Shown here piece by piece: positions 12,364 to 20,302 of a stretch of DNA of 44,697 nucleotides (its first letter is position 1; every line of letters starts with the position of its first letter). The notes beneath the pieces were generated by a model, which was given only the letters and a program-made list of their open reading frames with translations, did not search any database and had not been told where the DNA came from. Position numbers and translations under genes: made by a program. The stretch is from Bifidobacterium breve (lineage in GTDB: Bacteria > Actinomycetota > Actinomycetes > S36-B12): the NCBI GenBank assembly GCA_945900705.1, contig CAMDKJ010000003.1, positions 1 to 44,697 of the forward strand, read 5' to 3'.

Positions 12364-12729
12364 TCAGTCGAGTTGTCCGAGTGCTCGCAACCTAGCTCGG
12401 CCGCGAGCGGAGGTGCGAGGATCATCCGATGCGGCGTCAGCCTTGGCGGCGTCAGCGTCAATCTCTGATTCAAACTCCGCCGACTCAGCCAAAATGGTCA
12501 CGCCGCTCTCGGTCACCGAGAGGTAGCCCCCATCAACGGCAATGCGCAGGTCATCCTCACCCTCGCGCTCCACCCGAACCATTGCATCGTCAACCAGTTG
12601 GGCCACAACGGGGATATGCCGAGGCAGGATCCCGATCTCGCCAGAGGTCGTGCGCGTGAACAGGAAGGTCGCCTTGCCAGACCAGATCTTGCGTTCGACA
12701 GCGACTATCGTTACATCCAATTCGGCCAT
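12364..12729 (-). CDS. atpC: ATP synthase epsilon subunit (short, mycobacterial-type)
   Basis: [11 protein letters not shown] motif; last gene of the atp operon. Confidence 0.96.
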
Positions 12730-12762
12730 CTCATAGCACCCTTCGACTCAGCCAAGTCCGCA

Positions 12763-14217
12763 TCACAAAGTAACGCCGTAACTCAAGGCTTTCTTCGCCA
12801 AATCGTCAAGGCCACCGATCAGGAAGAACGCTTGCTCCGGAACATGGTCGAAATCGCCCTTGCAAAGCCGGCCGAACGCCTCGATATTTTCTTTCAAGGG
12901 CACCGTGGAGCCAGGCTGGCCGGTGAACTGCTCAGCAGCCATCATGTTCTGGCTGAGGAAGCGTTCAATGCGGCGGGCCCTGTTGACCAACTGCTTGTCT
13001 TCCTCGGACAATTCATCGATACCGAGAATCGCGATGATGTCTTGGAGATCCTTGTAACGCTGCAAGATCCGGATGACCTCCTGGGCCACCCGATAATGCT
13101 CCTCACCCAAGATTGCCGGGTCGAGAATCGTCGAGCTGGAAGCCAACGGATCGACCGCGGGGAAAATACCCTTGGAGAACACCTTGCGAGATAGCTCGGT
13201 GGTGGCATCGAGGTGCGCGAAGGTCGTGGCCGGGGCCGGGTCGGTGTAGTCATCGGCCGGCACGTATACCGCCTGCATAGAGGTGATGGATCGTCCGCGA
13301 ACCGAGGTGATTCGCTCCTGCAACTGGCCCATCTCGTCAGCCAGGGTCGGCTGGTAGCCCACCGCCGATGGCATCCGGCCGAGCAAAGTGGATACCTCAG
13401 AGCCCGCCTGGGTGAACCTGAAGATGTTGTCAATGAATAGCAGCACATCCTGCTTTTGTACGTCGCGGAAGTACTCCGCCATGGTCAGGGCCGAGAGTGC
13501 AACGCGCATGCGGGTGCCCGGCGGCTCATCCATCTGGCCGAAGACCAAGGCCGTGTCTTTGAGGACATTTGCATCGCGCAACTCCACCCAAAGGTCATTG
13601 CCCTCGCGGGTACGCTCCCCTACCCCGGCGAACACCGAGGTGCCACCGAAGTTACGTGCGATGCGATTGATCATCTCTTGGATGAGCACCGTCTTGCCCA
13701 CTCCAGCGCCGCCGAATAGCGCGATCTTGCCGCCTCGAACATATGGCGTGAGCAGATCCACGACCTTAAGGCCGGTCTCGAGCATCTCCGTGCGTGGCTC
13801 GAGCTCATCAAAGTTGGGCGGGGGGCGATGGATTGGCCATCTTTCGAATTCAGCTCCGTAGCCGGGTTCGTCAAGGCACTGCCCGAGGGTGTTCCACACG
13901 TACCCCTTAACACCGTCACCTACTGGCACCGTCAGTGGACCACCAGTATCGATCACCTCGGCACCACGCACTAGGCCGTCAGTGGGCTGCATTGAGATCG
14001 TGCGCACGAGGCTGTCACCGAGGTGCTGTGCCACCTCAAGAGTGACCGTCTTGGCCATTGGGCCGTACGTGATCTCGACGCGCAGCGCGTTGAACAACTC
14101 AGGCACCGAGCCGCGAGGGAACTCTACGTCAACCACGGGACCGGTGATGCGAACCACGCGTCCAGCTGTGTCGAGGGTGCTGCTGAAATTACCATCAGTC
14201 TCTTGGGTGGCGGTCAT
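12763..14217 (-). CDS. atpD: ATP synthase beta subunit
   Basis: [27 protein letters not shown] at 14217 has an RBS. Confidence 0.98.
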
Positions 14218-14241
14218 GGTCCTCTTCACTTCCTTCGTGAT

Positions 14242-15165
14242 TTACTTGACGGCATCGGCGAGGGCATTCGCCCCACCGACGATTTCGCTTATTTCCTGGG
14301 TGATCTGGGCCTGGCGTTCGCGGTTCGACATTAAGGTGAGTTCTTTGATTAGGTCATCCGCATTATCAGTGGCTGCTTTCATCGCGCGGCGGCGAGATGC
14401 CGATTCTGAGGCGGCCGACTCAAGTAGTGCTGAGAATATTCGAGTGGCAACATATCGGGGCACCAGCGACTCAAAGAGTGCATCGGCATTGGGCTCGAAG
14501 GAAAACAGGGTCTGTGGGCCAGAGTCTTCCTCGGCGTACTGCACTTCAATCGGCGCGATCCGCCTAGCCTCAGAAGTCTGGGACAGCATCGATCGAAACT
14601 CCGTATACACTAGATGTAGTTCATCTACACCTAAGATTCCGTCCTCACCGGGGTCATCGCCATCATCATCGGCACCGGAGAGGAAGGCGGCAACTAGGGA
14701 GTCCGCGACCTCCTTGGCGTGTTCGTAGGTAGGCCGCTCGGAGATACCCACCCATGAGTTGGTTATCGCCCAATTTCGGAATTTGAAGTAGGTCAGCGCC
14801 TTGCGCCCAATAACGTAGAGGACCGGGGTCTTGCCCTCAAGGCGCAGCATCGCGATCAACTCTTCGGCAAGACGCAAGACATTCGCGTTGTATCCGCCGC
14901 ATAGGCCACGATCGGAGGTAACCACCAGCACCCCGGCGCGCTTGGGGTTCTCACGGGGCACCAACACCGGGTGGTCAAGTGCTGAACCCGATGCCAGATC
15001 GGACAACATGTTCGTGATCTCGTTTGAGTACGGGCGTGCGGCATGAACGCGCGCCTGTGCCTTCGCGATCCGTGACGTCGCGATAAGTTCCTGGGCTTTG
15101 GTGATCTTCTTGATCGACTCCGCAGAGCGGATACGACCGCGAAGTTCGCGTAATGTCGCTGCCAT
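14242..15165 (-). CDS. atpG: ATP synthase gamma subunit
   Basis: [22 protein letters not shown], and an acidic loop insertion. Confidence 0.98.
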
Positions 15166-18756: not shown

Positions 18757-18765
18757 TGCGACTCG

Positions 18766-19014
18766 TTAAGCTCCCGGCGTGGCAAAAACGAAAAGCGCCA
18801 TGAACGCGAGGTTGATGAAGTAAGCCGCCTCAACTAGGCCGACCGTGATGAAGAACGGGGTGAACAAACGACCCTGTGCTTCTGGCTGGCGGGCGATACC
18901 GGAAATTAGTGCGTTACCGGCAATGCCGTCACCGATACCCGCACCGATGGCGCCGCCACCTAAAATGAGGCCACCGCCGATCAGGGCTCCGGCCACGATT
19001 GTTGGGTCTGCCAT
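18766..19014 (-). CDS. atpE: ATP synthase subunit c
   Basis: GxGxG motif, ARQPEA loop, proton-carrying Glu in GLVEAAY. Confidence 0.98.
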
Positions 19015-19094
19015 TGCTGTTCCTCCTTAATTTCTTGTCGGTTTGCTTTTATTTCTCAGTGGAAATGTCATTAGTGAAATGGCGCATGCGTAGC

Positions 19095-19856
19095 CTAGTG
19101 GTGCGACTCCTCTGTCTCCGTGGCTTGGCTGAAGTAGAGAATTGTTAACAGAGCGAAAATAAAGGCCTGAATCAGTCCGACAAAGAGGTCGAACGTTTTC
19201 CAGATCGCATTGGGTGCCCACATTATGTAAGAGGGCAGCATCGCGATCAGTCCTACCATGATGACGCCGGCGAAGATATTGCCAAAAAGCCGCAGCGACA
19301 GGGAGATTGGTTTGGCGATCTCCTCCACGAGGTTGATCGGGGCGAGGAAGGCCACGTGGCCCTTGGTGACCTTTATGGGGTAACCGATGATGCCGCTTCG
19401 CTTAAAGCCCGCCGCGTGGTAGCAGATGAAGACGAACAGAGCGAGGGCCAGCACGAAGTTGATATCGGAGGCAGGTGGTTTTAGTAACTCAACGGCGCCT
19501 CCCTCGGCCGAGGCGAACTGAAGTGGGAGTACGGATATCCAGTTCGCGATCAAGATGAAAACGAAAAGGCTTACCACCAGTGGAAGCACGAATGGAGCCA
19601 GTGAGAGGCCCATAGACGCTTGCACTTGCCCGCGCATCTGAACGGTCACGGCTTCCCAGAACAACTGAACACCACTTGGCACACCGGTGGAAGTGACCTT
19701 GGCCCGAAGGACGAAAGCAAGTATGAGGGTAACTACCGCGGCCACCAAGGTTGCGTAGATTGTGTCGGTGTTGACCGTCATACCTAACCAGGTAGCAGTG
19801 GTATGGCTGCCGACCTCGATCGAAGTTACGGGGCTGAATTCTTTTATCAAGGTCAC
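19095..19856 (-). CDS. atpB: ATP synthase subunit a
   Basis: [13 protein letters not shown] and [13 protein letters not shown]. Confidence 0.98.
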
Positions 19857-20302
19857 GACTTCTGGGTCTCCGAATCAACTGGAGCATCGAGCTCACCCTT
19901 GCGGATCTTCATCCAAACAGGAATAACCGTGCTCAGCACTAGGACCACCTGAAACAGTGCGAGGCCAAACAAGACGCCGAAGCCAAATGGTCGAAAGGCG
20001 AATGCGACTACCAGCGCAATAAGGGTGATGACGAGCAGACGGGTCGCAGAGTTCAGCGCCAGCCCGCGCTTAAGTGGGTGATCTTGCGCGGCGATCGCGG
20101 CAACCGACCAACTCACCACCTGTGCATTAGCGAGGCCTAAAACCAGACCGATGGAGAAGAACACGCCAAACATCACCGAGCCCGCAAGGGCGGCCAGCGC
20201 GATTGACACGCCACTTAGAACGATGCAGAACACGGCTAGCCGTGCCGGCCGAAAGACTACGGATGGAAGGACGAACGGCGGCTCTTCCAGAGGCGCTGCC
20301 AA
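19853..20302 (-). CDS. atpI: AtpI-like membrane protein (resembles mycobacterial Rv1303)
   Basis: Four TM segments, HPLKRxLALNSAxRL motif, first gene of the operon, overlaps the atpB start. Confidence 0.8.

Follow-up and report, generated by a model that had tools for sequence, protein, structure and literature searches.

The 44,697-nucleotide (nt) stretch of DNA studied here (the window, to which all coordinates refer) is contig C3 of G000, a metagenome-assembled genome (MAG) of 1.78 Mb in 215 contigs that is 75.7% complete. Between positions 12364 and 20302 its minus strand carries nine same-direction genes for an F1Fo ATP synthase, in the order atpI-B-E-F-H-A-G-D-C, with atpH encoding a fusion of the b and delta subunits. 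We conclude that the native atp operon, which lay between wecA and cobO/murA, was very probably replaced in place by a complete and working operon of Mycobacterium descent that reaches from about 12364 to about 20367 and includes a putative promoter region of its own. The event is a xenologous operon displacement in situ, probably followed by cassette-like exchange. Judging from the flanking genes, the host is a small-genome freshwater actinobacterium of an order other than that of Mycobacterium; the nearest named record is labelled 'Candidatus Nanopelagicales'.

All window proteins were compared by blastp with the open frames of 20-kb stretches around atpH from 97 coded genomes and 30 named loci. 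In the coded taxonomy the window belongs to genus g1 of family f1 and the Mycobacterium-like genomes to genus g29 of family f13, with only the class in common. The native f1 operons used for comparison come from 11 genera. The nine genes of the operon are as follows.

19853–20302, minus strand: atpI-like first gene, 149 amino acids (aa), TTG start, 52–65% identical to the open reading frame (ORF) upstream of atpB in Mycobacterium
19095–19856, minus strand: atpB, subunit a, foreign, 253 aa, NCBIfam subunit A, 67–81% identical to Mycobacterium and 25–30% to f1 natives
18766–19014, minus strand: atpE, subunit c, foreign, 82 aa, 79 of 82 residues the same as in PDB 9vks_A
18226–18756, minus strand: atpF, free b subunit, foreign, 176 aa, NF004412 at 158.7 bits, 49–63% identical to Mycobacterium and 27–32% to f1 natives
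16892–18226, minus strand: atpH, b-delta fusion, foreign, 444 aa, NF009961 ('subunit B/delta') at 563.7 bits with a cut-off of 328
15165–16811, minus strand: atpA, alpha, foreign, 548 aa, mycobacterial-type C-terminal tail
14242–15165, minus strand: atpG, gamma, foreign, 307 aa, acidic loop insert, aligns with 6foc_G, loop included
12763–14229, minus strand: atpD, beta, foreign, 488 aa, TIGR01039 at 800.9 bits, 85–90% identical to Mycobacterium and 71–74% to f1 natives
12364–12729, minus strand: atpC, short epsilon, foreign, 121 aa, 80–94% identical to Mycobacterium and 41–46% to f1 natives

AtpH is 52–65% identical to Mycobacterium and 31–37% to native f1 proteins, AtpA 80–88% and 70–77% (a range that omits one partial 50% match in a native f1 locus), and AtpG 68–83% and 44–48%. 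AtpE is 85–100% identical to Mycobacterium loci and found no blastp hit among the f1 natives. The atpI-like gene had no blastp match in native f1 loci either, and its product scores 20.8 bits with Pfam ATP-synt_I, under the cut-off of 25.1. Among the flanking proteins, MurA is 70–78% identical to native f1 and 58–65% to f13, PrfA 75–81% and 54–69%, CobO 67–81% to f1 and 62% to Mycobacterium, and WecA 63–83% and 49%. The switch in identity coincides exactly with the wecA-atpI boundary on one side and the atpC-cobO boundary on the other.

An earlier note on this DNA had called the operon mycobacterial in type from a set of hallmark subunit features. The 444-aa b-delta fusion is borne out by its NF009961 score and by an alignment at 446 bits, end to end, with 7jg5_d, a mycobacterial chain (the matches next in rank are non-fused and stay below 55 bits). 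In a sample of 401 genomes of the phylum, the NF009961 cut-off was passed only by G000 and by 7/7 genomes of genus g29. The gamma acidic loop, which is missing from native f1 and Streptomyces-like gammas, and the 121-aa epsilon (130–134 aa in f1 natives) also held up, as did the Rv1303-like identity of the first gene and the closeness of subunits a and c to their mycobacterial versions. The alpha tail stood in part. Residues 1–547 align with 7jg5_A, tail included, at 991 bits (the top non-mycobacterial chain reaches 675 bits), but native f1 alphas are also long, at 544 aa with a tail that differs from the mycobacterial type, and tail length alone is therefore not diagnostic of the operon type. 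In an alignment that included other Mycobacteriaceae and native relatives, the alpha tail motif, a gamma loop of 13–14 residues and the 121-aa epsilon were confined to Mycobacterium and to genomes with the foreign operon (carriers); all three were kept in 7/7 aligned carriers.

The operon and its flanks have different trees. We aligned AtpA, D, G, C and B as one concatenate (77 rows, 1713 columns, FastTree) and analyzed 43 of those rows with the quick search of IQ-TREE under a mixture model. The carriers form a single clade (starred support 100) within the Mycobacterium clade (100, starred), beside uncultured aquatic Mycobacterium MAGs (99, starred), and native f1 operons group with their own order (100, starred). 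In a 70-row concatenate of the flank proteins MurA, CobO, WecA, TsaC, PrmC and PrfA, the window falls within f1 (96, starred) and within its own order (100, starred), and a branch of starred support 100 splits it from f13. The comparison of Atp and flank trees proposed in the earlier note has thus been run, with the Atp proteins falling inside Mycobacterium and the flank markers inside f1. The flanks had been described as non-mycobacterial; they do place the window outside Mycobacterium's order, with the affinity now narrowed to family f1, which is Candidatus Nanopelagicales-like. Candidatus Nanopelagicales is an order of the class Actinomycetes (NCBI), and the nearest named record, L005 ('Candidatus Nanopelagicales bacterium'), is 94% identical to the window in AtpH and 90–99% in the flanks.

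We examined the depth of this nesting with a nine-protein Atp tree (28 rows, 2577 columns) rooted on other f13 genera, in which the carriers lie three nodes deep in Mycobacterium. For approximately unbiased (AU) tests, the Mycobacterium group was defined by genus code, record titles and the flank tree, independently of the atp tree. Forcing Mycobacterium to be monophyletic without the carriers cost 33.85 log-likelihood units in one test (p-AU 0.0158) and 52.86 in a second (p-AU 0.000458), and monophyly excluding the carrier operons is rejected. Because the Atp and flank trees disagree, and given the AU tests, the donor was a Mycobacterium lineage and the recipient the freshwater group.

The order wecA-[atp]-cobO-murA is the same in carriers and natives. 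One F-type beta was found per genome in 5/5 genomes searched (G000, G001, G004, G009 and G021, four of them 95–98% complete), and a search of f1 genomes showed a native delta beside the foreign operon in no carrier. The in-place replacement of a nine-gene operon that had been proposed from the sequence is upheld by these observations: foreign Atp proteins, native flanks, the same locus in relatives and a single F-type beta. The features that define its edges are these.

20412–21533, minus strand: wecA, native upstream flank, 63–83% identical to f1 natives and 42–54% to Mycobacteriaceae
20368–20411, no strand: upstream junction, spacer from the wecA stop to the foreign promoter motif, with WecA f1-type and AtpI foreign
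20358–20367, minus strand: extended -10-like motif GTGATAGCGT, about 55–65 nt upstream of the atpI start, sole match in the window
12337–12363, no strand: downstream junction, 27-nt spacer between the convergent atpC and cobO stops, with CobO f1-type and AtpC foreign
11761–12336, plus strand: PduO-type cob(I)yrinic acid a,c-diamide adenosyltransferase (cobO), native downstream flank, TIGR00636, 67–81% identical to f1 natives and 54–66% to family f13

These edges agree with the breakpoints suggested previously, near 12337–12363 and 20303–20411, since CobO and WecA are native and AtpC and AtpI foreign. The upstream junction varies by genus from 110 to 432 nt. A GTG(G/A)TAnnnT motif stands at a similar distance upstream of atpI in 11/11 carrier and 5/5 Mycobacterium loci printed, and the copy at 20358–20367 is probably a promoter that was co-transferred with the operon; a generic promoter and terminator scan gave no excess over shuffled sequence. 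At the other end, a DUF2550 gene follows atpC in 2/2 scanned Mycobacterium loci (L016 and L009). The earlier note had remarked on the lack of this DUF2550/Rv1312 gene. It has no match in the atpC-cobO stretch of the three f1 loci scanned (one native and two carriers); in the window that stretch is 27 nt long, and other native loci leave just 51–83 nt there. Its absence is a mark of the breakpoint rather than of gene loss.

Housekeeping genes surround the operon. Upstream lie wecA, glyA, tsaC, prmC, prfA and rho; downstream, the convergent cobO is followed by murA, a methylmalonyl-CoA-mutase-like gene and nucS. We considered an integrated mobile element (island, prophage or transposon) and rejected it: no integrase, transposase or other mobile-element gene was found, no repeats flank the operon, and no tRNA that could serve as a target lies near it, the only one in the window being at 37220–37293.

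The composition of the operon is largely converged on that of its host. GC content stays at 0.54–0.60 throughout the window with no step at the operon, and the segment's value of 0.582 compares with a genome median of 0.572. GC content at third codon positions (GC3) is 0.687 in the window's operon and 0.621 in its flanks, 0.818 and 0.805 in a g10 carrier, and 0.829 and 0.854 in a g6 carrier; Mycobacterium loci have 0.86–0.89. The tetranucleotide distance of the segment from G000 lies in the upper tail, with 5/106 genome windows farther. Because operon GC3 follows each host and the tetranucleotide distance is not extreme, the transfer is old. The codon and tetranucleotide comparison suggested earlier answers in part: GC3 tracks the host, and a clear foreign signal is missing. 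As an argument for or against transfer, we set composition aside as too weak either way.

Of 173 f1 genomes searched, 152 gave a match of some kind, and in 23 of these it was the Mycobacterium-type fusion. Carriers occur in 8/16 f1 genera, and other members of their genus often have the native operon in the same place. Genus g1 has nine carriers among 12 genomes (the other three, 57–76% complete, gave no match at all), and the remaining carriers are spread over g8 (5/29), g11 (2/13), g6 (2/33), g10 (2/6), g13 (1/2), g307 (1/2) and g308 (1/8); none was found in g9, g7, g2, g5, g14, g3, g12 or g4. Order-wide, 24/390 genomes carry the fusion, the extra one being G704 of family f10, and families f7 (0/93) and f4 (0/39) have no carriers. 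On carrier contigs that include flanks, these are f1-type, unlike the Mycobacterium type. The same swap is thus present in sister genomes, as the earlier note had asked of them: in eight further g1 genomes and in seven other genera. In 8/16 f1 genera, and in one genome of a second family, the foreign operon takes the locus that the native one otherwise occupies.

The foreign operons have one origin within this group. All 19/19 f1 carrier operons form one clade (100, starred; stem 0.14), so we conclude that there was a single entry, and the G704 operon is sister to that clade (100, starred). The trees indicate a probable source in a lineage near the uncultured aquatic Mycobacterium. The wecA of G704 is closest to f10, f9 and f3 types. 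Its locus (L132, genus g309) is a 5.9-kb contig on which the foreign operon comes right after this non-f1-type wecA; the MAG has 6% contamination.

The hosts of these operons do not form one group. Our f1 flank tree has 32 rows, 12 carriers and 20 natives, four of the natives being outgroup rows from other families; rows with less than 35% of columns filled were dropped, the g8 carriers among them. Carriers are scattered on this tree, and its starred branches force five changes. Carrier and native are sisters in the pairs G021/G662 and G602/G603, and the g10 carriers G689 and G692 are placed among the natives G690 and G020. One further locus, L113 (positions 1–4891; G699, genus g308), has a foreign operon nested in g1 diversity. 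In place of cobO-murA, genes for two acyl-CoA dehydrogenases and an enoyl-CoA hydratase come after the operon there, which points to either a relocated copy or a mis-binned or rearranged contig.

Close relatives preserve traces of exchange. In g10, the carrier G689 and the native G690 are collinear, with 85% DNA identity up to the wecA stop that resumes 29 nt past the atpC stop; inside the operon only the atpA and atpD cores align, at 72–77%. Between the two carriers G689 and G692, only 84 of 9700 nt (0.9%) differ over a block (L117, 7150–16900, against L118) that takes in all of the foreign operon, the ORF after it, cobO and the 5' end of murA. The edges of the block are sharp: in the flanks, 612 of 4975 nt (12.3%) differ on the left and 348 of 2801 nt (12.4%) on the right. 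This 9.7-kb block looks like a recent recombination tract.

In g11, both carriers, G021 (L040, 12884–13207) and G658 (L115, 12947–13218), retain native remnants in the gap that separates wecA from the foreign promoter. These are the 3' part of a native atpI-like gene, a native leader and the first codons of a native atpZ-like gene. A 165-nt stretch of this scar is 87.5% identical to the native operon of G662. The remnants show that in g11 the foreign operon overwrote a native one; carriers of g1, g10, g6, g307 and g8 showed no such scar. Flank proteins pair G021 with G662 (93–95%) and G658 with G659 (88–92%), and the two foreign operons are sisters that are less diverged than the native pair (AtpA 96% versus 92%, AtpG 90% versus 83.5%). 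A possible conserved regulatory element is a 65-nt core of the scar, which is nearly the same in the native G662 locus.

One illegitimate integration of a Mycobacterium-derived operon into a freshwater lineage would have started this history. From then on, homologous recombination in the conserved flanks probably carried the operon from one lineage to another. We hold more tentatively, and with less than even confidence, that the two operons make up a long-lived polymorphism across this order of abundant lake actinobacteria, moving between species, genera and families via the flanks and held by selection on how firmly ATP hydrolysis is blocked under energy starvation. The block itself is deduced from the subunits: the carrier enzyme would work like the mycobacterial one, with a b-delta/b stalk and with alpha tail, gamma loop and short epsilon that are predicted to block hydrolysis. 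That such a block spares ATP in energy-starved plankton is speculative and rather doubtful.

The best surviving alternative reverses the later history: the family would have fixed the foreign operon at an early stage, after which many lineages regained a native one through recombination with relatives that still had it. Between genera, foreign operons have diverged almost as far as native ones, the carrier clade branches in a star-like way with a long branch per genus, and g11 has two subclades of one carrier and one native genome each, all as this account would have it. The g11 scar, however, records a native operon overwritten by a foreign one and not the opposite, and across the split between the two subclades the foreign pair has diverged less than the native pair. 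The native operons of g10 and g4 group as their flanks do, as under vertical descent, and 129 of the 152 f1 genomes with a match, with eight whole genera, are native only. We consider this history unlikely.

Several independent transfers from Mycobacterium into different genera would also produce a patchy distribution. Donor-like aquatic Mycobacterium MAGs and carriers both come from lake and freshwater metagenomes, and the upstream junctions differ in length among genera (110–432 nt). Against this stand the one clade of all f1 carrier operons with its long common stem, the position of the f10 carrier as its sister, and a carrier clade with no Mycobacterium row within it, which together leave repeated entry very improbable.

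A transfer from the freshwater family into Mycobacterium, or vertical inheritance of an ancestral type, could draw on the long stem of the carrier clade and on roots that depend on the chosen outgroups, but we give it hardly any credence. Rooting on other f13 genera leaves the carriers deep in Mycobacterium, and both AU tests go the same way. Operon types also grade through f13, with unfused b' and delta in seven genera and distant fusions (39–44% identity) in others. In the host order, 366 of the 390 genomes are non-carriers by this query, and of 41 relatives sampled, the 37 with a match outside the carrier genera all have a separate b and a long delta.

The earlier note had named a chimeric assembly as the main alternative, and this did not hold. 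The stretch or part of it occurs in 20 public runs from 10 lake and freshwater metagenome studies, and we examined junction contigs (Logan contigs) in four runs from four studies. The downstream junction is bridged by record 1 of run X1 (11000–13063) and record 26 of run X6 (12064–13045), the upstream junction by record 8 of X1 (20244–21695) and record 15 of X11 (19929–20657). X1 could itself be the source sample, so the independent support comes from X6 and X11. Depth is even along the stretch, apart from 2/30 bins (16872–17605) that lack cover in X11, and no joints were flagged. The same operon is found, in some cases in part, in eight further g1 genomes and in carriers of seven other genera, and in 12/12 carrier rows with enough flank for the f1 flank tree it lies between the same f1-type flanks. 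Since contigs from independent lake runs bridge both junctions, as the proposed coverage check had looked for, the arrangement is not a chimera. Mis-binned Mycobacterium contigs as a cause of the patchiness are ruled out where contigs include flanks. That assembly or binning joined a Mycobacterium operon in silico to foreign flanks is scarcely credible: G000 is an incomplete MAG in many contigs and Mycobacterium MAGs occur in similar samples, but independent MAGs of eight genera have the arrangement with genus-specific flanks, both junctions are bridged across studies, the operon's GC3 is like the host's and unlike that of Mycobacterium, and the carrier operons form a clade of their own on a stem of 0.14–0.17.

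Several points weigh against in-place displacement followed by exchange. There is no visible mechanism for the first integration, and the identity of the flank proteins to Mycobacterium (49% for WecA, about 62% for CobO and MurA) falls short of what ordinary homologous recombination needs. As an independent signal of foreignness, composition adds little, given the 5/106 genome windows that lie farther out. The trees come from FastTree or 'quick' IQ-TREE searches, and one AU p value is only 0.0158. The host-side genomes are nearly all MAGs; the genus of the carriers on short contigs that lack flanks (G628, G576, G593, G582 and G699) follows from binning alone, and the g10 tract may partly be the collapse of a conserved region in metagenome assembly. 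Enzyme properties are deduced from sequence only. Finally, foreign operons are nearly as diverged between genera as native ones (AtpA 88–92% versus 86–92%, AtpG 81–90% versus 72–82%). Relative dating from these values gave no clear answer, and with divergence so nearly equal, the patchiness is explained about equally well by spread of the foreign operon and by an old polymorphism in which the native operon came back repeatedly.

The closest known system is the mycobacterial F1Fo ATP synthase (M. smegmatis 7JG5/6FOC, M. tuberculosis 8J0S), the bedaquiline target, with the same nine-gene layout and subunits. Window and mycobacterial enzyme have in common the b-delta fusion plus a free b, the alpha tail, the gamma loop, the 121-aa epsilon and a near-identical c. 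They differ in the host, here a freshwater actinobacterium of about 2 Mb from another order with a GC3 of about 0.69 (0.86–0.89 in Mycobacterium), in the missing DUF2550 after atpC and in a b-delta protein that is only 52–65% identical. For latent hydrolysis, a c9 ring and diarylquinoline binding, the likeness to the mycobacterial enzyme is one of conserved sequence. According to a review (PMC11672644), only mycobacteria have this alpha tail and gamma loop, which make ATP hydrolysis latent.

Xenologous gene displacement in situ and mosaic operons were reportedly described by Omelchenko and colleagues in 2003 (Genome Biol 4:R55), mostly for single genes within an operon. As in such displacement, foreign orthologues replace native genes at the same locus and the neighbors are unchanged. 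Unlike in those cases, a whole nine-gene essential operon was displaced together with its putative promoter, and both versions persist across the family.

Two further comparisons come from published papers. Eight A/V-type ATPase subunits of Thermus and Deinococcus are shared with archaea (PMC1274311). There, as in the window, a complete rotary ATPase gene set comes from a distant lineage. That case changes the enzyme type and is fixed, whereas the window exchanges F-type for F-type, within one class, in place and polymorphically. Haloarchaea exchange commonly held loci between species by homologous replacement (PMC3542582). This resembles the recombination in conserved flanks suggested by the g10 tract, in another domain of life, but the unit exchanged here alternates between two operon versions that do not look homologous.

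We found no report of this transfer among open-access papers, which is not proof that there is none. What appears new is that one complete F-type operon has taken the place of another at its locus and that it persists through a family as an interchangeable version. Core multi-subunit complexes with highly co-adapted parts are generally regarded as difficult to transfer; this ATP synthase passed as a whole from one order to another, took over the native locus and has probably been exchanged repeatedly since its entry. Because congeners carry either operon, they are natural controls with which co-adaptation and the value of hydrolysis-blocked synthases can be tested.

Also new is the presence of 'mycobacteria-specific' target features in lake plankton. 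The tuberculosis drug-target literature (PMC11672644, PMC8698299) treat the b-delta fusion, alpha tail, gamma loop and subunit c as specific to mycobacteria, and the carriers show that fusion, tail, loop and c type are not confined to them. PMC4219376 calls atpE a 'totally specific' quantitative PCR (qPCR) target for counting Mycobacterium in tap and lake water. Against the window, the published oligos have no mismatch in the probe, one in the forward and three in the reverse primer. Two other carriers have forward/probe/reverse mismatches of 1/0/1 (G576) and 2/0/0 (G567), and a true aquatic Mycobacterium MAG (L009) has 1/0/2, so that some carriers match the oligos as well as aquatic Mycobacterium MAGs do. 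Cross-reaction of the assay with carriers is plausible from these counts, and with so few mismatches lake Mycobacterium counts may be inflated. If the two operons are indeed a long-lived polymorphism, features used as Mycobacterium-specific drug and qPCR targets would be common in lake plankton.

Some observations made along the way concern individual loci. Two lake-type contigs, L027 and L029, are titled 'Bifidobacterium breve' MAG, organism labels that look wrong. L027 is a g1-type carrier locus (AtpH 94% identity, f1-type wecA and glyA), and the flanks of L029 are of Mycobacterium type. Within the window, the atpH-atpA spacer holds a tandem pair of 20-nt units (16834–16873) that are 90% alike.

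The peripheral stalk varies within Mycobacteriaceae in the broad sense, as seen in the f13 loci L079–L093. A fused b-delta of 39–44% identity occurs in g294, g284, g286, g305, g292, g280 and part of g282; a second b stands unfused beside delta in g291, g295, g288, g300, g306, g275 and g281, and elsewhere there is an ordinary b with a long delta. In the genera with the 39–44% fusion, the Fo and stalk proteins are Mycobacterium-like (AtpE 85–91%) and AtpC is only 38–45% identical. In the host's own order, L052 (G025, family f2) has an odd atp operon on a very long branch, unlike both native and foreign types, with identities to the window of 61% for AtpE, 43% for AtpB, 29% for AtpI and only 61% for AtpA. 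The native-type operon of a g6 genome (G644; L123, 9261–10670) contains one frame of about 470 aa that spans b and delta and is 33% identical to the window's fusion. The query used found no separate b at this locus, which may hold an independent b-delta fusion or a sequencing error.

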